Position numbers and translations under genes: made by a program. Below are positions 22 to 35,334 of a DNA stretch of 35,334 nucleotides, in pieces. This DNA comes from a virus (Duplodnaviria; Heunggongvirae; Uroviricota; Caudoviricetes): positions 1 to 35,334 of the IMG/VR virus record IMGVR_UViG_2778261179_000021, one strand, 5' to 3'. The notes beneath the pieces were generated by a model that worked only from the letters and a program-made list of their open reading frames with translations, searched no databases and was not told the origin of the DNA. The stretch's first letter is position 1; every line of letters starts with the position of its first letter.

Positions 22-351
22 ATGCGTTATCCCGTCACTCTTACACCCGCGCCGGAAGGCGGTTATATGGTTTCTTTTGTGGATATCCCTGAAGCGTTGA
101 CGCAGGGCGAAACTGTCGCTGAAGCGATGGAAGCGGCAAAAGATGCTTTACTGACCGCATTTGATTTTTATTTTGAAGATAACGAGCTTATCCCTTTACC
201 TTCGCCATTAAATAGTCATGATCACTTTATTGAAGTGCCTTTGAGCGTCGCCTCTAAGGTATTGCTGTTAAATGCTTTTTTACAGTCAGAAATCACTCAG
301 CAAGAGTTAGCCAGGCGAATTGGCAACCCGAATGTAGTCAACCCAAAATAA
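22..351 (+). CDS. hicB: HicB-family antitoxin-like protein; C-terminal HTH appears truncated
   Basis: GAGGGA RBS about 10 nt upstream of ATG at 22 (track ORF 1..351 starts at an in-frame ATG at the window edge). N-terminus MRYPVTLTPAPEGGYMVSF...QGETVAEAMEAAKDAL fits the HicB antitoxin fold. The C-terminal ...SEITQQELARRIG looks like the first helices of an XRE-type HTH, then 8 unrelated residues and a stop. Confidence 0.6.
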   Translation: MRYPVTLTPAPEGGYMVSFVDIPEALTQGETVAEAMEAAKDALLTAFDFYFEDNELIPLPSPLNSHDHFIEVPLSVASKVLLLNAFLQSEITQQELARRIGNPNVVNPK

Positions 352-583
352 CTAAAAATTTTGCAATAAAAAGCCCCATCTCAAGGACAAGGCTTAGAAA
401 TCAACTAATTAACATAGTTTCCAGATCAAAGGGGTTATAATGAAATCCATAAAAGGTGATCTGTTAGCTGGGTGCTGTATATCTAAAATGTTACTTAATT
501 AATATCGTTCTGGTGGTTAGCTTTCATCGCATCTCACCATTTTTGAGTAATCTTCATGCTATTGAATTGCATCATTTCACCTC

Positions 584-1363
584 TTACTCTGCGTCTACCA
601 TGTCACATGCAAATTGAGTGTGTTTATATTCAGAATCAAATTTTGGTTCAATTACTTCAAGACGCATGTCACCTTTTTTGCTTACCCAGATGTTATAAGT
701 GTTAACACGTCCAATAGCATCCTGTTTGGATTTACCTTCCATTGCGTTTGGATTCTCTTTAGATGGCTTGAGACTTGATTTATAAACATCATACTTGTCG
801 GAATACACAAAAGATACAGGAACATCGTCTACCATTTTGATCTTAAGTTTACCGCCGTTATTATCAAAAGTTTTGTTTCCGTAGAGTTTATCTTTTACAG
901 CTTCTGTTTCCTCACCATCGATAACTTTCCATGTAAATTTTGTAGTACATGCGTAAATCGCGGTAACATTCAGTTTCTTTACTTCTTCCTGTTTCGGTTG
1001 TTCTTCTTCAATCTTCGCAGAAGTCTCTGAATCGCTCTCTGACGCGGTTTCTTCTTTAGATAATACATTCATCAAGTTTTGGATTTGAGCGTTGTATACA
1101 GCCTCCAGTGGCTGAATCTGCCCGATATTGATCATTGTATCACGAACAGTTTTATTCCAGTTTCGTTGCTCTTGTTTCAGAGACGGATCAATCTTAACAG
1201 CCTTAACATATACTTCATGAAGTTTAGAATCCAGTGCGGAGATTGACTCATTAGCACAAATAAACTTCTCTGATTTGGTAGTGGCTTTAGCGCAATCAAA
1301 GGACGCAGCATCAGCACCGAAAGCAGTAGCAGAAAGAACGATAGCAGCGATAATGTTTTTCAT
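584..1363 (-). CDS. secreted protein with DUF1311/LprI-like N-terminal domain
   Basis: ATG at 1363 with AAGAGG RBS; N-terminal signal peptide MKNIIAAIVLSATAFGADA; FDCAKAT...FICANESISALDSKLHEVY...QEQRNWNK pattern resembles DUF1311 (lysozyme-inhibitor LprI N-domain). Confidence 0.6.
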   Translation of the reverse strand: MKNIIAAIVLSATAFGADAASFDCAKATTKSEKFICANESISALDSKLHEVYVKAVKIDPSLKQEQRNWNKTVRDTMINIGQIQPLEAVYNAQIQNLMNVLSKEETASESDSETSAKIEEEQPKQEEVKKLNVTAIYACTTKFTWKVIDGEETEAVKDKLYGNKTFDNNGGKLKIKMVDDVPVSFVYSDKYDVYKSSLKPSKENPNAMEGKSKQDAIGRVNTYNIWVSKKGDMRLEVIEPKFDSEYKHTQFACDMVDAE

Positions 1364-2963: not shown

Positions 2964-2990
2964 AGGGACTCTTCGGAGTCCCTTTTTTAT
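2964..2990 (+). terminator. intrinsic terminator (AGGGACTC-TTCG-GAGTCCCT plus T6)
   Basis: 8-bp stem, TTCG loop, TTTTTT run; abuts the stop codon of the convergent minus-strand gene. Confidence 0.65.
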
Positions 2991-3928
2991 TGGCAGTAAG
3001 AAAAGTTAGTACCGTACATTTCATCATGAAGCATTGCAGCATTGCGTTTCTGTTCTTCTTCCTCGTCTACCGCATCACTAGAAAAATGAGATTTGCCCTT
3101 AAAAGAACGAAGCAATTGCAGTGCAGCCATCGGATCACGCATCACATCGATTTTCACTTCTACTTCATCATTTGCGGCCTCATCAGCCGCATTTTCAACT
3201 ACTGCCACCGGAGCAACTTCTTTAGCTTTCAGTTCTTCAATTTCAGCTTTCTGGGCTTCGATAATCTGGTCTTTTTCTTCCAGTGCAGCTTTCAGTTCTG
3301 CGATCTGTGCTTCCAGTGCAGCAAAGCGATCTTCTACAACAGGAGAAACAGCATTAACCTGTGCTTCCAGTTCCAGAAATGCTTCGCAAGATTCAATACG
3401 TTCTTTCTCTTCACCTTCATAAGCAACCAGTTCTACAACTTCTTTTTCGGTAGCGTGGCTGTTAAAGAATACAGCAAAGTAAGGATTGCCGGATTTAGTG
3501 AAGTTCAGTTTAGCTTTTCCGGTAACTTCTTTACGACGACCGAAGGTGATCTGGCAATCAGCGGTATCCTGAAAATCCATGTTAGGAGCGGAAACGATAG
3601 CAGTATCACCAGCAATCACCAGGTGGAACAGTTCAGAAGAGTTCTTAACGGTAAAGGTAACGATGTGGTCTACTGCAACGTCTTTAGCAGGTTTAACGCG
3701 GTCGATTGCTTTACGAATGCCGTTAGGCAGTTTACCGTCAACACCAAAGCCAGCCGCGATCAGTGCTTCACGATGTGCTTTAAAGCCAGCGAAAGCGGAT
3801 TTCTGCTGCGCAAAGGAAACATGAGCAACAACTTTCGGCTGAATCTTCTTGTTTGCTTCGGTGCCAAATTTGATAACTGCTTTAGCGTTGGTTACTTCGT
3901 TAGTGAAAAAGTTAGCGGAAAATAACAT
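2987..3928 (-). CDS. hypothetical protein with central coiled coil and acidic C-terminal region (313 aa)
   Basis: ATG at 3928 with GGAG RBS; long ORF; heptad-like region ...FAALEAQIAELKAALEEKDQIIEAQKAEIEELKAKE...; second gene of a leftward operon downstream of LexA-like boxes. Confidence 0.7.
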   Translation of the reverse strand: MLFSANFFTNEVTNAKAVIKFGTEANKKIQPKVVAHVSFAQQKSAFAGFKAHREALIAAGFGVDGKLPNGIRKAIDRVKPAKDVAVDHIVTFTVKNSSELFHLVIAGDTAIVSAPNMDFQDTADCQITFGRRKEVTGKAKLNFTKSGNPYFAVFFNSHATEKEVVELVAYEGEEKERIESCEAFLELEAQVNAVSPVVEDRFAALEAQIAELKAALEEKDQIIEAQKAEIEELKAKEVAPVAVVENAADEAANDEVEVKIDVMRDPMAALQLLRSFKGKSHFSSDAVDEEEEQKRNAAMLHDEMYGTNFSYCQ

Positions 3929-4222: not shown

Positions 4223-4320
4223 TTTTAATCCCTCATTGTTAGGTTTAAAAAATCTTAAAAAAGAGCTTTTCGCTCTGAACAATTCTATTTATAAAATGTT
4301 TTTCGAAAAACCCTGTAAAA

Positions 4321-4342
4321 CCACTGTATATCCGATCAGTGG
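4321..4342. promoter_or_regulatory. LexA-box-like inverted repeat (CCACTGTATATCCGATCAGTGG)
   Basis: CTG-N10-CAG with a consensus-like left half ACTGTATAT; lies immediately upstream of a candidate minus-strand -35 (TTTACA) for the 4222 gene. Confidence 0.4.
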
Positions 4343-4405
4343 GAGCACGAATTGCTAAAGAGAAGATTAATAATTAATCAATCCGTACAATATTCAACCG
4401 AAAAA

Positions 4406-4444
4406 GCACTGTATATCTAACCAGTGCTGTATGAGTTAACAGTG
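4406..4444. promoter_or_regulatory. two overlapping LexA-box-like sites, including TGCTGTATGAGTTAACAGTG (CTGT-N8-ACAG)
   Basis: 4406..4427 GCACTGTATATCTAACCAGTGC; 4425..4444 matches the SOS-box core CTGT-N8-ACAG with the left half CTGTATGAG as in the E. coli recA box. Confidence 0.5.
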
Positions 4445-4580
4445 AGTCAGGAGATTTTCAGAAGTGAACAATCATTTTTCATGCATGTATTTATACACGA
4501 AAAAATCATGCTTATCATCTATATGGGGATTGTTTGGAAAATTTCAACCCTTACCAGTGATAAAAAGTATAAAATAGTTC

Positions 4581-4594
4581 TTGACACATGTCAA
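4581..4594. promoter_or_regulatory. operator-like imperfect palindrome TTGACACATGTCAA overlapping a -35-like TTGACA
   Basis: Outer arms TTGAC/GTCAA perfectly symmetric; TTGACA hexamer at 4581..4586. Confidence 0.3.
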
Positions 4595-4790
4595 CAAACA
4601 TGATCTAAGCGAGAGGTGACTATCAAAATTTTTGTTTGAAAATGGTAGATTAGGATTATCAACCTTTATAATCTATTATGGCACGGAGACCTTTTGATGA
4701 TTCCTTTTAAATCATTAGATTACGCCACTTTTTGGTGATTTTTTGGTTAAATAATATACAATAATTTTCTATCAAAATATTTGATGGGAA

Positions 4791-4986
4791 TTGCCCCCGA
4801 AATTCTGAATTTTTGCCCCCGAACAAAATCCCAAGATTCTACTATCCTATTTTTGCCCCTGAAACCTACTATTTTTGCCCCTGAAATTCTGGGAAACAGT
4901 GATTTTGCCCCTCATTTTTGCCCCTGAAATGCCAATAATTGCCCCTGAAAATCTAATTTTTGCCCCTGAAATTTTCCCCCGAAAAG
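4791..4986 (+). repeat. iteron array: about 9 direct copies of TTTTTGCCCCTGAAA
   Basis: Cores at about 4793, 4815, 4855, 4877, 4907 (degenerate), 4920, 4941, 4962, 4976 (degenerate), all in the same orientation, with spacings of mostly 21-22 bp or multiples; inside a 1.4-kb region lacking credible ORFs. Confidence 0.8.
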
Positions 4987-5118
4987 GATTGGTGAGAAAA
5001 ACTCTTTATAAAACATTAACTTGGGTGGGGGTAAAGGCGGGGGATTCGGCGTGCATAGATATTATATAACACATTCGCTACGCTCATGTGTAAAACCAAA
5101 AATAACCAAAAAGATATT

Positions 5119-5138
5119 AGGAGGGCTTTGCCCGACTG
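5119..5138 (+). repeat. 20-bp direct repeat copy 1 (AGGAGGGCTTTGCCCGACTG)
   Basis: Matches 5508..5527 at 19 of 20 positions; contains internal GGGC...GCCC dyad. Confidence 0.75.
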
Positions 5139-5507
5139 CGCGAAGCGCTAACCAATTACTTCTAGTAACAACTAATTTAAACTAGATGATACTAGATGGT
5201 CTTAGAAGGAATTAACTAGTTTGCTCGCTCGCTTCGCTCACTCTCAAACGTCTGCGACGCCACTGCGTGGCATCGAGAATCACTTTTGAAAGGATTTTCT
5301 TAGAAAGGGATTTAATACTAGTTACTAACTGATTCTAGTAAACGAACGAAGTGAGTAACAATCACTTTCTAGAAAGGTATTGGTATCCCTTCGGGATTGC
5401 AACCTTCGGTTGCTAAATTGCTTCCTGATTATTATTTCTCCAAAAGAAAGATTCTTATATTCTAAAGATACTTCTTCGTTTTGATGATGATTTAATCAAA
5501 ACTATGA

Positions 5508-5527
5508 AGGAGGGCTATGCCCGACTG
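5508..5527 (+). repeat. 20-bp direct repeat copy 2 (AGGAGGGCTATGCCCGACTG)
   Basis: Matches 5119..5138 at 19 of 20 positions; 389 bp downstream of copy 1. Confidence 0.75.
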
Positions 5528-5612
5528 AATACAATCACCTTTCATAATAACAAGAATTTTCTCTTTATAAATAATATTAGATTGATTCACTTTCTTTTAG
5601 AGGATTTCCACT

Positions 5613-6440: not shown

Positions 6441-7271
6441 ATGAATACTGTTACTACTATGAATACTGCTGTTAAAACTGCTTCCGTGTCTCTGGTTGTT
6501 GATAACACCAAACCGCTGACCATGTCTACCCGTCAGATTGCTGAATTGACCGGAAAGAATCATAAGGATGTTATGCGTGATTTTCGTCGCATGATTGATT
6601 CTCTTGAAAAAGGAAGCGAATTAGCCGGGCGCAATTTTGCGCTGGGGTATTTTGTAGAATCTTCATATTTTGATAAGAATAATCAATCTCGCCCGATGTA
6701 TGAACTGGACGAAGATCTCTGTAATACTCTGGTTATGGGATACGATGCACCGCTTCGCTTCAAAATTGCTAAAGAATGGCGTTTGATGAAAGAAGGGAAA
6801 GCTAATGTTCCGGTTAATCCATATGAACACTTTGAAGAAACAGACTGGATCGAACTGGCGTTAAAGAAAACTCGCGAAAACAAACAACTGATTGAACTTC
6901 ATGTTCGTAAGTCTGTAGATAGCCATTCAATGACGCGTCTGTTAGGCGCTAAAAAGGGCGCTACGAAGGTTAAAGAAGCACTGACGGCCTTGCGTACTGC
7001 TGGATACATTGAGCGCGTCTATGATGAAAATAACAAGCCGTGTGGGTATGTTGCTAATGATTCCGCTTTACCGTTTTGCAGCATGAACGCTCACTATCAG
7101 CTTTCTTTTACTGTTGATGTGCTTCCGGTGTTGGTTGAATTTGGTGTTCTGGAAGAAGAACAAAAAGCAACTCTGAATCTTCCTAAGCCGAACAACACTA
7201 TTCTGATTCAAAATAAAGCGGCTGAACGTCTCCGTCAGAATGTTGGATCACTGGAAGTCTTCGGACTGTAA
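6441..7271 (+). CDS. Rha-family phage regulatory protein (antirepressor-like)
   Basis: N-terminal motif MSTRQIAELTGKNHKDVMRDFRRMIDSLEK is characteristic of the phage Rha domain; 276 aa; followed by an intrinsic terminator. Confidence 0.7.
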   Translation: MNTVTTMNTAVKTASVSLVVDNTKPLTMSTRQIAELTGKNHKDVMRDFRRMIDSLEKGSELAGRNFALGYFVESSYFDKNNQSRPMYELDEDLCNTLVMGYDAPLRFKIAKEWRLMKEGKANVPVNPYEHFEETDWIELALKKTRENKQLIELHVRKSVDSHSMTRLLGAKKGATKVKEALTALRTAGYIERVYDENNKPCGYVANDSALPFCSMNAHYQLSFTVDVLPVLVEFGVLEEEQKATLNLPKPNNTILIQNKAAERLRQNVGSLEVFGL

Positions 7272-16219: not shown

Positions 16220-19200
16220 ATGCAGTCGATCCAATTTAAACGCACACAGACGGCTGGTAAAAAACCAACGCCGGAACAATTATCACAGGGTGAGATCGCC
16301 TTACAACTGGCGGACCATGTGATTTACACCAAAGACAAAAATAATAATGTAGTTCAAATTAGTGTTTCTCCAGAAAAACACGCTGAACTGAATACGAAAG
16401 TAGACAATAACAAAACTAGCACTGACCGTGTTATTGCAGCAAATAAGAAAGAAGCTGCTGATAATCTGGCTAGTGCTAAAGCTGAACTTAATCAGACTAT
16501 CACTTCTACCCGTGATACCCTCAATGCTTCAATCACTGCTGGCGATACCGCAGCCAACAAACGAATTGATGCTTTGACTACCACAGTAGGTAACAATAAA
16601 ACCGAAGCGGCTAACGCTCTGGCGGCTGCTAAGACTGAACTGAATCAGACTATTACTTCAACCCGCGATACTATCAACGCGACAATTAACAAGAACAAGA
16701 CAGATATTAATGCGCGAGTTGATCAGACGAATACCAACGTTACCAACTTAACGAATACTGTCGCAGCAAATAAATCAGCAATAGAAAAGACGGTAGCGGA
16801 TAATAAGAAAGATGCGGACACGAAGATCACCAATCTTACTAGTACGGTCTCTGCGAATAAGACAGCCATTGAAAGAACTGTTGCAAATAACAAGGCCAGT
16901 GCCGATGCCGCAATTGCCGCAGCTAATCAGCGAATTGATTCGATTGAAGGTAGTGCCGATGCTGCTTACATCAAGAAGAATACCAACACTTACCATCACG
17001 GGTATTTGTTAAGCAAGACCGCTAACTATTTTGATGATGCTGGCGCACGTAACCTTGATTATTTTGGTGCGTTTCGTCCGAACAATGCCGAAGGTTGGGG
17101 TAACTTAATCCTTAACATTCCTCATTCTGGCGGTAAAGCCCACGGTCGCGGTTTTGAGTTCCACTATGGGTCTAGCTCATCTCAAGTTAAAACCTATGGC
17201 TTTGATAAAGATGGTAATAAGCGATTCAGCTACCGCATGTATCATGAAGGTGATAAGCCGACTCCTACTGAATTGGGTGTGTATAGTAAAGCCGAAGTTG
17301 ATCAGATGTTCACTAAACCCGTTCATATGTCAACTGGTGAAAATGCGGCTGGTTACTTTAAACTGGCAACGGCAACAATTCCACAAGGGGGTCGAGGCTT
17401 TTTCATCCGTATTTTCGGTGGAAATGGTTATAACGTTAATAGTCCTGATCAGTGTGATATTGTAGAAATTGTTATCCGTTCCGGTAATGGAAATCCGAAA
17501 GGTGTAAACGTTGTTGCTTATCGTCGTAATACTAATAACGAGTTTGAAACCTTTGCGGTTAATACTTCGGGTGATAACTATGATATCTATGTGAAATATC
17601 GCAAATACACCGATAAAGTTACTGTAGAGTACGGTAAAAGTGCTGATGTGACTTTAAATGTGTATGATACACCTGAATTAACTCTCGTTAAGCCGTCTAC
17701 TGGTGTTAACGAAGGTCGTGTTATTACCTTGTTTAATACTGAAAATAAACGCGGTACTCTGTCCTTTGATAATAACTCACAAGCAACTTACGATATTGTG
17801 AGTTTGAGCGCCGCACAGGACCGTAACAAAAAATATCTGCGTAAATTCCGTAGTCAAGCGGTAGAGACCATCTGGCATGAAGTTGTTAACGGTAGTTCAT
17901 ATCGTTTAGCTACTGGTGTTACCGATTCTACTGATGTTTTTCAGATTGATTCTACTGGCTCTGTTGCTGGTCCATATAAAGGCAACGTGACTACTGGACG
18001 TATGGAATTAAACGGTGGTAGTAATGCATTAACTTTGCGTCGTCCTGCTGGACAATCTAACCATATTACATTCCAAGATAACCGTAGTGGTAATATTACC
18101 CGTCAAGGCTGGATCGGTTATGGTGACGCTGATACTAACGCATTGCAGATATATAGCGATGTAGGAAGTAACAAATTTGCATTAGAAACTAACGGTCAGA
18201 TCTCTCTGAATGTTGGCGCAACAAAAATTGTTTACTCTAACGGACAATATTATTCCGCTAACTCAGATGCATTCCGTATGATTTACGGTAATTACGGTGC
18301 ATTCTGGCGTAATGATGGCACTAAAGTATATTTGTTATCTACTGCTGAAAATGATCGTTTTGGTGGCTGGAACGGCAACCGTCCGTTCATTTACGATTTA
18401 ACTAACGGTAAAGTTACTTTAGGTGGTGATGGTAACGAAGGTGCATTAGTTCTTGAAAGAGATAGCCGTGCTGCTCGCTTTAGTAATAACGTATTCTTAG
18501 AGAAAGGTTTGCTTACGTTCTCTGCTGGTGGAAATCAGTCGATGGATTCTTTCACGATTAACCATTGGGGGAATAGTAATGCCGATCGATATAACGTTTT
18601 GCAATTCCAGGACACTAGCGGAACTCACTTTACCACTGAACGTAACGGATCTGGCGGTTTGCTTGCTCATTTCCGAGGGGATTTAACTACCGAAGGAAAA
18701 TTAACGTGGGGTAAGGGTACAGCTACTTCTAGTTTCAATATTCGTGCATGGGGCGCTGATGCTCGTAAACAAGTATTTGAATGTGCTGATGAAAGCGGTT
18801 GGCATTGGTATACCCAACGTCCGGGCGGTCCGGGTACTACGGCAATTGAGTTTGCTATCAACGGTACTGTTAAGCCTCAAGCAATTCACACTGGCGGCAA
18901 TATTCTTTTGAACGGTGCTGATATTGAATTTCGTCGCACTGGTAATAAGCATATCTGGTTTAGAGATCCAACTGGATTAGAACTAGGTTTGATGTATTCC
19001 GATGATGCTGGTGTTATTCGCTTCCGTGGTCAGAAACAAGCCCAGACGTGGAAACTTGCGGATAAGATGATCCAGTTGGAATCTGGTACTGTAACCGGAG
19101 GCGGTAATGGCCTGATTCGTGGTGAAGTTGCTGGCGGTAGTTGGGCTAGCTGGCGTGACCGTGCTGCTGGCCTTATGGTTGGGTGTCCTCGATCAACCGA

Positions 19201-19738
19201 TTCCGCTCATAACATCTGGAAAGCGACACATTGGGGTAAATATCACATTGCAGCAATGGGTGTGCATGTTCCTAGTGGTACTATCGGTAACGCTCTTGTG
19301 CGTCTCCATGTTCATGATACTAACTTTGACTTTAACGCTGCTGGTGATTTTACCGCAGGTCGCAACGGTAGCTTTAACGATGTTTACATTCGCTCTGACT
19401 CTCGTCTGAAAATTAACAAGGAAGAATTACAGGACGGCGCATTAGAGAAAGTAAACTCCCTGAAAGTCTACACCTACGATAAAGTTAAATCTCTTTCCGA
19501 TGACACAGTGATTAAACGCGAAGTAGGCATTATTGCTCAGGATCTGGAAAAAGTATTGCCGGAAGCGGTAGGTATTCAATCCACAGAAGATCCAGAACAT
19601 CCAGAAGCAATCAAGACTATTTCTAACTCTGCTGTCAATGCTTTAATCATCAAGGCTATGCAGGAAATGGACGCCAAATATAAAGCGCAGATCGAAGCAT
19701 TACATAAAGAGATTGCCGAACTGAAAGCAACTAAATAA
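16220..19738 (+). CDS. long tail fibre with C-terminal intramolecular chaperone (peptidase S74-like) domain
   Basis: 1172 aa; N-terminal about 51-aa tandem repeats (…AKAELNQTITSTRDT…); C-terminal about 115 aa …IRSDSRLKINKEEL…VGIIAQDLEKVLPEAV…NALIIKAMQEMDAKYKAQIEALHKEIAELK match the self-cleaving chaperone domain of endosialidase/T5-type L-shaped fibres. Confidence 0.8.
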   Translation: MQSIQFKRTQTAGKKPTPEQLSQGEIALQLADHVIYTKDKNNNVVQISVSPEKHAELNTKVDNNKTSTDRVIAANKKEAADNLASAKAELNQTITSTRDTLNASITAGDTAANKRIDALTTTVGNNKTEAANALAAAKTELNQTITSTRDTINATINKNKTDINARVDQTNTNVTNLTNTVAANKSAIEKTVADNKKDADTKITNLTSTVSANKTAIERTVANNKASADAAIAAANQRIDSIEGSADAAYIKKNTNTYHHGYLLSKTANYFDDAGARNLDYFGAFRPNNAEGWGNLILNIPHSGGKAHGRGFEFHYGSSSSQVKTYGFDKDGNKRFSYRMYHEGDKPTPTELGVYSKAEVDQMFTKPVHMSTGENAAGYFKLATATIPQGGRGFFIRIFGGNGYNVNSPDQCDIVEIVIRSGNGNPKGVNVVAYRRNTNNEFETFAVNTSGDNYDIYVKYRKYTDKVTVEYGKSADVTLNVYDTPELTLVKPSTGVNEGRVITLFNTENKRGTLSFDNNSQATYDIVSLSAAQDRNKKYLRKFRSQAVETIWHEVVNGSSYRLATGVTDSTDVFQIDSTGSVAGPYKGNVTTGRMELNGGSNALTLRRPAGQSNHITFQDNRSGNITRQGWIGYGDADTNALQIYSDVGSNKFALETNGQISLNVGATKIVYSNGQYYSANSDAFRMIYGNYGAFWRNDGTKVYLLSTAENDRFGGWNGNRPFIYDLTNGKVTLGGDGNEGALVLERDSRAARFSNNVFLEKGLLTFSAGGNQSMDSFTINHWGNSNADRYNVLQFQDTSGTHFTTERNGSGGLLAHFRGDLTTEGKLTWGKGTATSSFNIRAWGADARKQVFECADESGWHWYTQRPGGPGTTAIEFAINGTVKPQAIHTGGNILLNGADIEFRRTGNKHIWFRDPTGLELGLMYSDDAGVIRFRGQKQAQTWKLADKMIQLESGTVTGGGNGLIRGEVAGGSWASWRDRAAGLMVGCPRSTDSAHNIWKATHWGKYHIAAMGVHVPSGTIGNALVRLHVHDTNFDFNAAGDFTAGRNGSFNDVYIRSDSRLKINKEELQDGALEKVNSLKVYTYDKVKSLSDDTVIKREVGIIAQDLEKVLPEAVGIQSTEDPEHPEAIKTISNSAVNALIIKAMQEMDAKYKAQIEALHKEIAELKATK
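16430..16930 (+). repeat. in-frame tandem repeats (about 153-nt unit) within the tail fibre shaft
   Basis: For example GCTAAAGCTGAACTTAATCAGACTATCACTTC at about 16475 versus GCTAAGACTGAACTGAATCAGACTATTACTTC at about 16628. Confidence 0.6.
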
Positions 19739-31828: not shown

Positions 31829-31853
31829 TTAAAAAGGGGTACGGATGTACCCC
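31829..31853 (-). terminator. intrinsic terminator ending the leftward recombinase operon
   Basis: GGGGTAC-GGAT-GTACCCC hairpin preceded on the + strand by AAAAA (T-run on the minus strand). Confidence 0.6.
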
Positions 31854-31891
31854 TTAAAGCGTTTGGTTCGTTATACGGCGATTTAGGCCGC

Positions 31892-32149
31892 CTATGATTT
31901 ATTTTCTTGTTCTATGAAAATCTTTCTCACCTCATCAGAATAAATGTCTAGTGATTCCTCATAACATTTTCTGTATTCACCGTAATTACTGGTGGTCTTT
32001 TGACATAGCAATTTCAATGTCTTATGTGCTCCATCAATGAAAGCATCTTCTCTATAGGTTAGCGGTCTACGCATTTCTTGGTCTACGGTTGCCAATGCCA
32101 AGCAAGAATTCATAGATAAAATCAAACCTAAAATCTTAATCATCTTCAT
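31892..32149 (-). CDS. small secreted protein (85 aa, signal peptide, two cysteines)
   Basis: ATG at 32149 (track start is an upstream TTG); MKMIKILGLILSMNSCLALA signal-like N-terminus; start is 3 nt from the recombinase stop, suggesting translational coupling. Confidence 0.5.
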   Translation of the reverse strand: MKMIKILGLILSMNSCLALATVDQEMRRPLTYREDAFIDGAHKTLKLLCQKTTSNYGEYRKCYEESLDIYSDEVRKIFIEQENKS

Positions 32150-32153
32150 TAGC

Positions 32154-33833
32154 TTAAATTCCAAATTCTTGTAATGGACCTGGTATTTCTTCTTCTGGTT
32201 TCCAGTTCTTATCTGTCAGCATGTCTAAACATGGATGCAGAACAAGCCCGTTACTCTCCAGAATCTGCCTATCATTGATAGTCTTCAAATCAACGAAGAT
32301 CCGGCCTTTCCTCGGTCCTCTTGAATTTTCTATTACAACTCTCTGGGTCTTGCCATCGATGTATTCCAGTACAAACAAGTTTTTGTACTTGTCAATCCTG
32401 CTACACCCGATCCGTTTTAGAGCTTGCTTAATCTTAAACCGGACCTTAATGCGATCCTCGTTGTAAACATCTTCTAAATCAAATTCTACGAGCTTCTCCC
32501 AGCCTTGAGAGTCAACAGAATACATTTCCTCTTCTGCCATCTTAATTTGATTGTAGAGTGTTTCACGCTCGCTATTGAGGGTAGTAATCTGATCGGCTAG
32601 CTCCTTCGTTGCTCCTGTCATAGCAGAAAGGGTAATCAGGTTATCAATCTTGCGTGATATTTCATCAATCTGTACTTTCAAAGCCGGAACCGGATTAGCC
32701 TTATCTTCAGCAATCCAGATTTTATCAGCCAGCAATTGCAATACAGCTTTCTCTAATTGGTCGCCGCGAAAACTCCAGTTTGTATGCACACATTCAATAC
32801 GACTAGAGCGCATTGCATCGCATGAATAACGATATTGGTTAGGCCGTCTGTTTGTTCCTTTCACCTTAACCATAGCGGAACCGCAATGTTCACATTTCAA
32901 TAGACCAACACCACTAAGCAAGGGAATAGGTTTAACTTCTTCTTTGTCTCCAAAGTTACATGCTCTAACACCAATGCTTTTCTTAAGGTGATAAAACTCA
33001 GCGTCATCTAGCACACGAGGATAATAATCCTTTAACTCATACTTAACGCCATCTACAGAGATTTCCTTGATACCAATCAAAGCGCGGGTATGGAACAACC
33101 TTTCAATCATTGCCCGTGACCAGTTTGAATGCCTCTTGTGACTTGCGGCTGGTGGTGGTGTGTATGTCGCGTTAAGGTGATCCAGTATCTCGGCGGTTGA
33201 CCGTCCATTCCTGCGTAATTCCACAACTTCCTGAACAATAGGGAAGAAGACCGGATGAGGAAGCACATAACCAGATGTGGTATCAGTCCACCACATATTC
33301 TTTCCAATTTCCTCGATTGCAACAGCCGGATTTTGTGGATTTTCTTGATGAGCTTTAATCTTAATCAGTGCGCTTGAGTTAGTACGATTGCGCTTAGTCT
33401 GGCTTTCCTCATTACCACGGATGAATAAAAGGATGGAGAACATCAGGTCCATCGGGTTAGCGGTAACAGTATCCAGCGAGTAGATCTTGTTATCCATGCC
33501 AGTAACAATGGTTATCCCCCTACGGATGATTGAAAGGAATAACTCCTGCGCACTGACAATATCGGCACGGGATAAACGGTCCAAGTTTTCGATGAATAGC
33601 CAGCTACCAACAGGAACGGATCTACCTATTGCATCAAGGAAACGAGATAGCGCCCCTGTTTTGGAGTTAGCACCCTTAAACGCAGATACACCCAGATCCT
33701 GATAATCATTTACCAGTTCAAGGTCATACTTTACCGCAATCTCTCTAGCCATCCTGATTTGTCGTTCATAACTCGAACCATCATTCTGACGCATAGACGA
33801 GAAGCGAATATACGAATACAGTTTAGTTTTCAT
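32154..33833 (-). CDS. large serine recombinase (probable integrase)
   Basis: 559 aa from ATG 33833 (track start is an upstream TTG); N-terminal resolvase-type catalytic domain with YIRFSSMRQ (serine nucleophile) and …ENLDRLSR…; C-terminal extension with zinc-ribbon-like cysteines (CEHCGS…YRYSCD) and a coiled coil. Confidence 0.9.
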   Translation of the reverse strand: MKTKLYSYIRFSSMRQNDGSSYERQIRMAREIAVKYDLELVNDYQDLGVSAFKGANSKTGALSRFLDAIGRSVPVGSWLFIENLDRLSRADIVSAQELFLSIIRRGITIVTGMDNKIYSLDTVTANPMDLMFSILLFIRGNEESQTKRNRTNSSALIKIKAHQENPQNPAVAIEEIGKNMWWTDTTSGYVLPHPVFFPIVQEVVELRRNGRSTAEILDHLNATYTPPPAASHKRHSNWSRAMIERLFHTRALIGIKEISVDGVKYELKDYYPRVLDDAEFYHLKKSIGVRACNFGDKEEVKPIPLLSGVGLLKCEHCGSAMVKVKGTNRRPNQYRYSCDAMRSSRIECVHTNWSFRGDQLEKAVLQLLADKIWIAEDKANPVPALKVQIDEISRKIDNLITLSAMTGATKELADQITTLNSERETLYNQIKMAEEEMYSVDSQGWEKLVEFDLEDVYNEDRIKVRFKIKQALKRIGCSRIDKYKNLFVLEYIDGKTQRVVIENSRGPRKGRIFVDLKTINDRQILESNGLVLHPCLDMLTDKNWKPEEEIPGPLQEFGI

Positions 33834-33846
33834 ACCATTTCCAAAC

Positions 33847-33882
33847 AAAAACGCCCCTACCGCGTATTATAACGATAGGGGC
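33847..33882 (-). terminator. putative intrinsic terminator between the secreted-protein gene and the recombinase
   Basis: GCCCCTA ... TAGGGGC 7-bp stem with 16-nt loop, preceded on the + strand by AAAAA. Confidence 0.35.
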
Positions 33883-33896
33883 TAGGTGATTAAAGA

Positions 33897-34316
33897 TTAA
33901 AGAATTTCACGGCAGCTAATCAGGGAATAAGACGTATCACCTTTTTTAACATCAAATATAGGCGCACCATCTACAGAATGCAGATATTTGATGTAGGATT
34001 TACCATCTTCGGAACCATAATATTCTTCTTTCTCGTTCTTATCTTCTTTCAGTTTTGGGCTTTTGATTGTTTTATCAAATACCGGATCGTTGAAAGCAAA
34101 TTGACTATTATCATCATTCACTCGAACCTTTACACCGATAAAACCACGGTATTTGCCAGACGGCGCATGATAATAACGATCGCCATCACTCAGGTAGCGT
34201 GTATCATCTCCTTTATATTCGAAGTAGGAATTGCACACATAATAGGTATAGGTATTAGCATTCGCAGCACCAACCAAACCCAGAGCAAGAACAACACCAG
34301 CGATAATCTTTTTCAT
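33897..34316 (-). CDS. secreted hypothetical protein (139 aa, signal peptide)
   Basis: ATG at 34316 with AAGAGGA RBS; MKKIIAGVVLALGLVGAANA signal peptide; Tyr/Asp/Lys-rich mature region. Confidence 0.6.
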   Translation of the reverse strand: MKKIIAGVVLALGLVGAANANTYTYYVCNSYFEYKGDDTRYLSDGDRYYHAPSGKYRGFIGVKVRVNDDNSQFAFNDPVFDKTIKSPKLKEDKNEKEEYYGSEDGKSYIKYLHSVDGAPIFDVKKGDTSYSLISCREIL

Positions 34317-34361
34317 AGTAGAATTTCCTCTTGTTGTTTGAATTACGATATATTTATATCA

Positions 34362-34484
34362 TTAAAAGTTAATGCTAATAATCAGACCAAACACAACCGC
34401 ACCAATCAAATCAATCCAGTTAATACACAGCGAATATTCTTTCTTGAATGTCTTAGATGAAATGCCATCATGAAATTGTTTCAT
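34362..34484 (-). CDS. small hydrophobic peptide (40 aa)
   Basis: GGGGTGAG RBS 5 nt upstream of ATG at 34484; MKQFHDGISSKTFKKEYSLCINWIDLIGAVVFGLIISINF with a C-terminal TM-like segment; absent from the track. Confidence 0.35.
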   Translation of the reverse strand: MKQFHDGISSKTFKKEYSLCINWIDLIGAVVFGLIISINF

Positions 34485-34487
34485 TGC

Positions 34488-34568
34488 TCACCCCATACTA
34501 ACGACAATATAAGAAAGACTAATCATGGTTGTGAGACTACCTCCCACGAATGAGATAAAAGCTAACAT
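34488..34568 (-). CDS. small hydrophobic peptide (26 aa)
   Basis: GGAG RBS 9 nt upstream of ATG at 34568; MLAFISFVGGSLTTMISLSYIVVSMG; its stop lies 3 nt before the next micro-ORF start. Confidence 0.3.
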   Translation of the reverse strand: MLAFISFVGGSLTTMISLSYIVVSMG

Positions 34569-34583
34569 GTTTGATTCTCCATT

Positions 34584-34610
34584 TAAAAAGCGGTGGGAAT
34601 TACACCCACC
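34584..34610 (-). terminator. intrinsic terminator downstream of the 145-aa gene
   Basis: GGTGGG-AATTACA-CCCACC hairpin; on the minus strand it is followed by GCTTTTT. Confidence 0.5.
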
Positions 34611-34624
34611 AAATTAGAAATTAA

Positions 34625-35062
34625 TTAAGCGCGAACGATGGTCAGAGTATCCAGCAAACCTTTTTCGTATAATTCGAAACACGTTTTATATTGCTCAATC
34701 TTCCAACCGTAGCGGGTGATCTTATTCAGTAGAATAATCACGGTATTCTCATCTAGGTATTGTCCTTGCTTACCAATTACATATGACTCGCGGGATAGTC
34801 TCAGCTTACGGAAACCTTTAACACCTAATTCCTTAGCCACCGCTTTAACCTCGTTAATCTCACCTTCTGCGGCTACATATTCAGCGTCGATAATCTCAGT
34901 TGATGATCTCAGTGCTACCAGAACTAAGGCCATTGCTTCTTCTTCGGTACGAGCAACACCAGCTTTCTCGAAAGTCATCTCACCAAATTTACGAGTCATA
35001 ATATTGAACATTGTCTGTATTCCGTTTAAATCGGCGGGAATAGTACCCGCCAAATTAGACAT
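34625..35062 (-). CDS. hypothetical protein (145 aa)
   Basis: ATG at 35062 overlapping the upstream stop (TAATG coupling); no recognisable motif. Confidence 0.6.
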   Translation of the reverse strand: MSNLAGTIPADLNGIQTMFNIMTRKFGEMTFEKAGVARTEEEAMALVLVALRSSTEIIDAEYVAAEGEINEVKAVAKELGVKGFRKLRLSRESYVIGKQGQYLDENTVIILLNKITRYGWKIEQYKTCFELYEKGLLDTLTIVRA

Positions 35063-35334
35063 TACTTCTTGCTGATAAACTCTTTAGCGATAAAGTTGAT
35101 TACTTCTTTCAGCTTCTTGTCTGTATCGATGCACGCTGGTAATTCTTCTTTAATATCCTGCGGCAGATACACATTGCCTTTAAAGTGGAGGAAACCATCA
35201 TTACCAATCATGTAGGAGAACATCCATTCACAATCGTTATCCGCTTCCCAGAACGCCACGGTCTCATCCCCAATCAAGGTAATGTCCATGTTGCGACGCG
35301 CTGCGTAGTTGATGATTGCTTTACCGATGTTCAT
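35062..35334 (-). CDS. hypothetical protein (90 aa or longer; start codon at the window edge)
   Basis: ORF runs to the last base of the window (…GATGTTCAT is the reverse complement of ATGAACATC); may extend upstream beyond the window. Confidence 0.5.
   Translation of the reverse strand: MNIGKAIINYAARRNMDITLIGDETVAFWEADNDCEWMFSYMIGNDGFLHFKGNVYLPQDIKEELPACIDTDKKLKEVINFIAKEFISKK

Follow-up and report, generated by a model that had tools for sequence, protein, structure and literature searches.

The 35,334-nt viral record IMGVR_UViG_2778261179_000021 (hereafter the window, meaning this whole stretch) holds all, or nearly all, of a ~35-kb E. coli prophage that sits in the antitoxin gene hicB. Its right-hand end carries a gene for a large serine integrase (Int) within a block of small accessory genes. 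The overall picture that we favor, as probable though well short of certain, is a hicB-integrating module with swappable cassettes, three transcription units, and a promoter predicted to span the phage attachment site (attP). In kind this is a standard large-serine-integrase module. It differs in its hicB target, in the 1.5 kb of cargo between attP and the integrase gene (int), and in the predicted att-spanning promoter. Any function given for a protein other than Int is inferred.

The product of int has 559 amino acids from an ATG or 564 from an upstream TTG. It contains a Resolvase domain (PF00239, E=2.1e-14, residues 11-158), a Recombinase domain (PF07508, E=1.5e-7) and then a Zn_ribbon_recom domain (PF13408, E=1.6e-9), and it matches PHROG 95, annotated as integrase (E=1.5e-58). 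The catalytic-region motifs YSYIRFSS and LDRLSR and the zinc-ribbon cysteines C314, C317, C338, and C348 are unchanged in seven relatives with 72-89% identity. Residues ~385-440 appear heptad-like by eye and may belong to the coiled coil that, in large serine recombinases, is set into the zinc-ribbon domain and governs directionality. Int has the defining features of a large serine integrase that we tested, and from its sequence we predict that it is active in recombination. The ratio of nonsynonymous to synonymous polymorphism (pN/pS) against diverged alleles is 0.21-0.29. The closest phage recombinases are only ~30% identical, all relatives from an integrase-profile scan of species-representative genomes are at or below 37% identity, and phmmer against the PDB found no relative of Int at E <=1e-5. 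The nearest annotated phage large serine recombinases, Burkholderia phage Bcep176 gp53 and the YbcK-like proteins of the E. coli lambdoid phages 4A7 and Perceval (28-31% identity over 81-84% of the protein), come from different phage types and are too distant to infer target or partners.

The target was read from the chromosomal flanks. In NZ_CP026723 the element has hicA and a hicB fragment on its left (PGAP annotates the fragment as missing the C-terminus) and, on its right, a hicB fragment missing the N-terminus followed by ydcR. The right junction is the same in NZ_CP062211 and NZ_CP074033, and several genomes have hicB in two pieces, 5′ and 3′, on either side of the element. The window runs from within hicB to the start codon (ATG) of the final phage gene, which leaves the right attachment site (attR) just outside it. 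The original prediction had noted that the recombinase gene is not next to the left junction. It is indeed far from that end, and it lies near the right junction, ~1.5 kb from attR.

A junction comparison of the two prophage ends gave the common core TTGGCAA; the attR copy of the core is 38-44 nt past the window end. The reconstructed attP has 17 of 25 positions in dyad symmetry, centered on the final AA of the core. Among related prophages, variants of the right phage arm (P) begin directly beside this dinucleotide (GCCAA, GCCTA, CACTA, CCCTA), and because the phage arms diverge right next to it, the crossover is placed at AA/TT. A natural intact attP occurs in locus L012, a 5.8-kb unintegrated Logan contig in which the two phage arms are joined, and it confirms the reconstruction. 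The bacterial site (attB) in hicB has no clear dyad at the crossover, which is the center of none of its four best dyads. Pattern searches of viral, metagenome, and genome collections found no further intact attP or left arm (P′). Integrated Salmonella relatives occupy a different chromosomal site. We hold the assignment of the integrase and its attachment sites with high confidence. The integrase gene and the features at the left end (attL) are as follows.

32154-33833, minus strand: int, large serine recombinase (prophage integrase), assigned by Pfam and PHROG.
22..351, plus strand: HicB′, the 5′ part of host hicB fused to phage sequence, assigned by PGAP and Pfam.
320-326: common core TTGGCAA of attL, with the crossover dinucleotide AA at 325-326.
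327..352: P′ half-site of attP (phage left arm), in dyad symmetry with the P arm; the arms are contiguous in L012.
336..341, minus strand: TTGACT in the left phage arm, the -35 hexamer of the promoter predicted to span att.
371..395, minus strand: terminator of an LprI-like gene, conserved in L040, L043, and L046.

On the strand of the accessory genes, attP reads TTGACT-17-TATCAT, a sigma-70-like sequence that matches the consensus at 10 of 12 positions and faces the genes for a 90-aa and a 145-aa protein. Its -10 hexamer is in the right arm, 31-36 nt past the window end, and the crossover falls in the spacer. With the two hexamers on opposite sides of the crossover, integration splits the predicted promoter; TTGACT-17-TATCAT is found in the reconstructed attP only and in none of attL, attR, and attB. 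In integrated Salmonella relatives, attR retains the -10, and host sequence that matches at one of six positions stands in place of the -35 (sequences read by eye). No host-side promoter facing the 90-aa and 145-aa genes was found within ~560 nt of attR. We predict from these sequences that the att promoter exists on unintegrated DNA only and that it sits under bound integrase.

Several features fit a promoter at this place. Sites with at least 10 of 12 matches are rare, with four in the whole window on both strands (70.7 kb of strand, or 0.006 per 100 nt). Variants approach the consensus: the natural attP of L012 reads TTGACA-17-TATCAT (11 of 12), and the -10 is TATAAT in L003, L019, and L037. 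The orientation is that of the genes, ~32 nt separate TATCAT from the first ATG, and GAGGGGG, ~25 nt after the -10, makes a strong ribosome-binding site. In the unintegrated genome, the predicted promoter lies behind an AT-rich tract and the LprI-like gene's terminator. We judge the chances that this promoter is functional, as read from sequence, to be about even.

The accessory block runs leftward from attR through int to a terminator shared with the lysis genes. All open reading frames (ORFs) of the original prediction are present on the minus strand, and its features are listed from right to left.

35062..35334, minus strand: 90-aa acidic cytoplasmic protein, phrog_6147, an optional cassette; alpha-beta4-alpha fold in a predicted model.
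35028..35067, minus strand: cassette scar where the 90-aa and 145-aa genes meet, a decayed copy of the T1 hairpin, -16.8 kcal/mol.
34625..35062, minus strand: 145-aa protein, with phrog_14908 in its C-terminal half.
34591..34611, minus strand: terminator T1, after the 145-aa gene, z=-3.2.
34488..34568, minus strand: 26-aa hydrophobic micro-protein, in nearly all relatives.
34362..34484, minus strand: 40-aa micro-protein with a C-terminal membrane segment, in all relatives that cover the region.
34317..34361, minus strand: conserved spacer ahead of the slot for secreted proteins, with a weak TTAACT-16-TATCGT in a relaxed promoter scan.
33897..34316, minus strand: 139-aa secreted protein with a signal-peptide-like N-terminus, predicted to be a small all-beta barrel.
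33853..33882, minus strand: terminator T2, a conserved hairpin and T-run between the 139-aa gene and int, -21 kcal/mol, z=-3.7, 11-bp stem.
31892..32153, minus strand: 262-nt insertion with an 85-aa orphan ORF, signal-peptide-like N-terminus, starting 1 nt after the int stop.
31834..31855, minus strand: terminator T3, after the 85-aa ORF, shared with the convergent lysis operon and kept in all relatives.

We scanned for intrinsic terminators on the gene strand and tested the stability of the hairpins, and all three were significant. The block had been described as one leftward operon; three stable terminators instead split it into units of the 90-aa and 145-aa genes, the 26-aa, 40-aa, and 139-aa genes, and int with the 85-aa ORF. 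The terminator that had been noted behind the 145-aa gene is real (34611-34591). Ahead of the micro-ORFs or the 139-aa gene, we found no sigma-70 match of at least 9 of 12 except one inside the 26-aa ORF. In Salmonella relatives, the micro-ORFs and the genes of the secreted slot are coupled, stop to start, to the upstream unit of the att promoter.

The T2 hairpin adjoins the 5′ side of the int ribosome-binding site, and seven relatives have it unchanged, including those with another gene upstream. In the loop is a perfect TATAAT (33871-33866) that is invariant among otherwise variable loop bases and is a candidate -10 for an int promoter (P_int). With TTTAAT or TTTAAA 17-18 nt upstream, it would make a promoter of 9-10 of 12 matches (TTTAAT-17-TATAAT in the window was scanned; the relatives were read by eye). 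A P_int transcript would begin inside the 3′ arm and so escape the T2 terminator. The hairpin thus probably gives int its own weak promoter, to judge from these motifs. It is possible that the T2 DNA palindrome is an operator; no second copy of it occurs in the window.

We compared the gene content of the block in ~35 related loci, drawn from Salmonella assemblies, IMG/VR, and E. coli genomes. Almost every one has int and the two micro-ORFs; the remaining genes vary. The 90-aa gene is present, swapped for a 69%-identical allele, or absent (missing in L003, L018, L019, L021-L023, L031, and L035). The 145-aa gene occurs in that form, as a commoner 128-aa form starting at M18 (window 35011), or not at all (missing in L027, L028, L030, L032, and L038). 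In L003 and L012 the 128-aa form stands directly behind the leader. This arrangement, together with the decayed hairpin at the junction (a 40-nt direct repeat, 80% identical to 34587-34626), makes the 90-aa gene look like an inserted cassette. The small genes had been proposed to be cargo, and this agrees with what we see: the 90-aa, 145-aa, 139-aa, and 85-aa genes are each present, replaced, or absent while int stays, and small genes lie between int and attR, inside the element. An att site directly beside the recombinase gene with the small genes outside, which would have counted against the original prediction, is not what the junctions show.

The pN/pS values against diverged alleles are 0.33 for the 90-aa gene, 0.26-0.41 for the 145-aa gene, 0.13-0.42 for the 40-aa gene, and 0.12-0.57 for the 139-aa gene. 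These four genes, all of the small ones but the 85-aa and 26-aa ORFs, show purifying selection and are more than chance ORFs. A fold search with the predicted model of the 90-aa protein gave a generic RWD/UBC-like fold, and the BFVD fold search returned uncharacterised phage proteins only. Members of the 90-aa family are found in virulent and in large phages as well, amid other small genes. In the 40-aa protein, the pattern MKQFHDGISSKTFKK...GLxxSINF is conserved between E. coli and Salmonella. The 26-aa ORF of the Salmonella relatives has the same length and is still hydrophobic, and in L037 an unrelated 29-aa hydrophobic ORF takes its position.

The 45-nt spacer that follows the micro-ORFs is invariant between E. 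coli and Salmonella, though the flanking genes diverge to 43-68% identity. Within it is a perfect palindrome, GATATAaaTATATC, at 34347-34360, which does not recur in the window. An operator role was considered for the palindrome GATATAnnTATATC and set aside, since it has no second copy in the window; the palindrome of the int hairpin has none there either.

The slot before int is polymorphic, and the 139-aa gene is one of its alleles, which have a single shared signal peptide. In its place, a locus may have an 81-aa protein, unrelated but with the identical signal peptide MKKIIAGVVLALGLVGAANA, an additional 113-aa membrane-anchored protein, a 348-aa CapR-repeat protein, or nothing. The predicted structure of the 139-aa protein is a small eight-stranded periplasmic beta-barrel like that of the PliC/MliC inhibitors, and a fold search gave weak similarity to PliC/MliC/PhiA lysozyme inhibitors. 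The Pfam MliC family is marked by the motifs SxSGAxY and YxxxTKG. The 139-aa protein lacks this sequence signature, and its SGKY segment varies across the family alignment. Pfam gave nothing for the 139-aa protein at E <=0.1 except a sub-threshold DUF4352. The small proteins had no family match in PADLOC, NCBIfam, or Pfam, and PDB sequence searches with the 90-aa, 145-aa, and 139-aa proteins, as with Int, returned nothing significant.

The 85-aa ORF (31892-32149) has its ATG 4 nt after the int TAA, and the 262-nt insertion ends at its own stop codon. We argue that it is a gene because the boundaries of the insertion are the boundaries of the ORF. Of 56 related E. coli prophages, 17-18 carry it, and PGAP leaves it unannotated. 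A search of 1.84 billion representatives yielded a single true cluster, all else being multi-stretch matches to long proteins that are not related to it. Its substitutions are few, too few for a selection test. The stretch between int and the endolysin gene in relatives holds CapR/T5orf172 or GIY-YIG nuclease-like genes, a UvsW-like DEAD helicase, and sometimes UvsY (examples are L003 2616-6004, L009 8229-12044, L019, L027, and L033). These T4-type genes follow int in temperate relatives and are not in the window. In L023 (3213-4768), the slot after int has an IS-type transposase-like gene and a gene of the aminoglycoside-2″-adenylyltransferase family (PF10706, E=2.4e-24).

We propose the following sequence of events. 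Int would recombine a ~50-bp dyad-symmetric attP with the site in hicB, with strand exchange at AA/TT. Small cassettes, bounded by conserved terminators and leaders, would have their landing pads in the 1.5 kb that separates attP from int and in the stretch after int. The att promoter would drive the 90-aa and 145-aa genes and, by read-through of the moderate T1, the micro-proteins and the secreted protein, and T2 would stop this transcription ahead of int. We would then expect the accessory genes to be expressed directly upon infection and upon excision, and to be silent in the lysogen. Int, expressed from a weak promoter of its own, would bind attP, occlude the att promoter, integrate the phage, and replace the -35 with hicB sequence. 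The int transcript would also carry the 85-aa gene in the sub-lineage that has it, and in the lysogen only int, with the 85-aa ORF where present, may stay transcribed. Serine integrases cannot excise without a recombination directionality factor (RDF), so such transcription would be harmless. More broadly, attP may double as a promoter through which the accessory block reports integration state, being on when the phage is free, off when it is integrated, and repressible by Int, with int insulated behind a terminator that holds its own promoter in the loop; we put this forward tentatively, at somewhat less than an even chance.

Several points weigh against this proposal. The att promoter, its occlusion by Int, and the read-through of T1 are predictions from sequence. 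Because the Int-binding half-sites contain both hexamers, conservation of the hexamers cannot be separated from that of attP, and the P′ arms sampled are only two independent ones (the hicB type and L012). T1 and T2, if efficient, leave the micro-ORFs and the 139-aa gene without a convincing promoter, the best candidates having 8-9 of 12 matches. The -35 of P_int is poor (3-4 of 6), and the T2 stem never varies, so it offers no covariation to separate an RNA terminator from a protein-bound DNA palindrome. No RDF was identified. In a rival explanation, the attP hexamers are a by-product of integrase half-sites in a ~50-bp site that is conserved for recombination anyway, and have no regulatory role, with the accessory genes transcribed from elsewhere or hardly at all. 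The small number of P′ arms speaks for it, and AT-rich phage DNA does yield many partial promoter matches, but sites as good as this one are rare in the window, and the half-sites are not symmetric at the two hexamers. The orientation, spacing to the ATG, ribosome-binding site, AT-rich tract, and upstream terminator also fit a promoter, and the natural variants move toward the consensus. We therefore judge the by-product explanation unlikely.

Another explanation concerns what the small proteins do. They may be morons, expressed from the prophage, that alter the surface or periplasm of the lysogen or exclude superinfecting phages, much as the original prediction had suggested. The 139-aa, 85-aa, 26-aa, and 40-aa proteins carry signal-peptide or membrane segments, the cassettes are bounded by terminators, and near-identical prophages differ by presence, absence, and allele replacement, with different mature proteins behind the same signal peptide. 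The weak likeness of the 139-aa barrel model to PliC/MliC/PhiA, the LprI-like gene at the other prophage end, and the position of the 85-aa ORF on the int transcript, perhaps made in lysogens, point the same way. Against this, the sole strong promoter is broken in the lysogen, the scans gave no substitute ahead of the micro-ORFs and the 139-aa gene beyond the match within the 26-aa ORF, these genes are coupled to the att-promoter unit in Salmonella, and the database searches returned no family. As a general account of the block we find this doubtful. Lysogenic conversion or superinfection exclusion by the 139-aa protein, the micro-ORFs, or the 85-aa protein is possible. For the 90-aa and 145-aa pair, the sequence makes lysogenic conversion unlikely, as their one good promoter straddles attP and is split by integration with no host-side substitute. 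The 90-aa or the 145/128-aa cytoplasmic protein might instead be an RDF or other regulator of the integrase, which would account for a location between attP and int. Serine-integrase RDFs are small, mutually unrelated, and sometimes encoded beside int (TP901-1 Orf7, SPbeta SprB). In Salmonella, too, the gene nearest the element end is the 90-aa homologue, co-oriented with the recombinase gene, and the 90-aa model is a protein-binding alpha/beta fold. Neither gene is universal among relatives with 87-100% identical integrases, however, each being absent from several loci at 87-98% integrase identity, and 90-aa homologues occur in large phage contigs without a large serine recombinase as well as in virulent phages. 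The predicted promoter would also be inactive in the prophage, exactly when an RDF is needed. The 139-aa, 85-aa, 26-aa, and 40-aa proteins carry export or membrane segments, unlike a cytoplasmic RDF. Since no cytoplasmic candidate is co-inherited with int, we place the RDF outside the small genes and consider this explanation very improbable. The original statement that no small gene looks like an excision factor agrees with the four predicted exported or membrane proteins and with the spread of the 90-aa family. Its suggestion of a module coupled to recombination applies in cis only, through the predicted promoter in attP; we found no evidence of the proteins acting in recombination.

Int is like phiC31 Int, Bxb1 gp35, TP901-1 Int, A118 Int, and SPbeta SprA in domain order, in its length of ~560 aa, and in having a short dyad attP, a 2-bp crossover, and a host-gene target. 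Unlike these, it has no close sequence relative, its attB in hicB is new, no RDF is known for it, and int lies 1.5 kb from attP with three to five genes between rather than directly beside it.

The predicted att promoter resembles several known systems and is not a member of any of them. In the junction promoters (Pjunc) of the insertion sequences IS911, IS30, and IS2, a -35 and a -10 from opposite ends make a promoter once the ends join, and insertion destroys it. The arrangement here is similar, with hexamers on opposite sides and a promoter in the joined form only, known here from sequence. It differs in that the junction is the attP of a serine integrase, the genes driven are accessory, and int is behind a terminator; the insertion-sequence promoters drive a DDE transposase from a transient circle. 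In lambda sib retroregulation, an RNase III site lies downstream of int. The KplE1 intS promoter overlaps attL and is repressed by IntS and TorI at attL (PMC2951348). As in these two cases, integration state or a recombinase at the att site would alter nearby expression; both are tyrosine-integrase systems and act on int itself. Integration-dependent immunity in the mycobacteriophages BPs and Charlie has attP in the repressor coding sequence, and integration changes the C-terminus. The present attP is likewise inside an expression unit, in a predicted promoter and not in coding sequence. Prophage morons (lambda bor and lom; HK97 gp15) are classically transcribed in the lysogen from a promoter of their own. 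The genes here share with morons a small size, bounding terminators, variability, and often membrane or secreted products; unlike classical morons, they have no promoter of their own evident in our scans that would be active in the lysogen.

The right-hand 3.5 kb of the window has matches in 60 of 5,426 complete E. coli genomes (~1%), all chromosomal. A plasmid search with the same segment gave no match, and sequenced phages gave none longer than 42 bp. The terminase has a best match of 44% identity. With no close DNA relative among sequenced phages or plasmids, the lineage is uncharacterised. A literature search found no account of a hicB-integrating prophage; hicB is named in the LF82 paper as part of a different element. 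An apparent interruption of hicB in ~20% of E. coli genomes was rejected, as the low-coverage matches come mostly from a divergent hicB allele.

In the prophage, HicB′ retains the HicA-binding domain (Pfam HicB_lk_antitox, residues 3-67). The helix-turn-helix is cut at about codon 101 (HTH_3 is residues 88-134 in intact HicB), and the phage sequence does not restore the lost C-terminus. Lysogens probably keep neutralisation of the HicA toxin and lose autorepression of hicAB.

Elsewhere in the window, a gene for a Rha-family phage regulatory protein (6441-7271, plus strand; PF09669, E=1.1e-17) is the sole recognisable regulator. Nine left-arm ORFs searched against Pfam gave no recognised CI-like repressor or replication gene, and no Rfam family or tRNA gene was found in the window. 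There is a 1.3-kb region (4283-5612) without an ORF of at least 70 aa and without an Rfam match that may be regulatory; it contains the best left-arm promoter match, TTGACA-17-TATACT (11 of 12) at 4594-4566 on the minus strand. Two ORFs of ~312 aa overlap fully on opposite strands (2987-3928, minus, annotated as hypothetical by PGAP, and 2990-3925, plus). Beside attL is a gene of the LprI lysozyme-inhibitor family (584-1363, minus strand; PF07007, E=1.6e-5), with homologues in 150-165-kb T4-like contigs; part of it (985-1369) has 96% nucleotide identity to T4-like Krischvirus phages. The tail-fiber gene (17003-19669) has 77% nucleotide identity to the same group (Shigella phage SSG23, RB49, Phi1). 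These two matches point to recent gene exchange between temperate and virulent phages.

The integrase, its attP, and a precise attB in E. coli hicB make a new candidate tool for genome engineering, and the definition of integrase and att sites can be used to annotate the ~1% of complete E. coli genomes that carry the element. The 26-aa and 40-aa proteins are conserved, unannotated micro-proteins that would be cheap to test. An antitoxin that keeps its toxin-binding domain and loses its DNA-binding domain may change host toxin-antitoxin regulation in lysogens. If the att promoter is real, it would be a simple, testable case of a phage sensing its own integration. If attP does report integration state, it would be a phage serine-recombinase counterpart of the insertion-sequence junction promoters and a new way to time early and post-excision functions.

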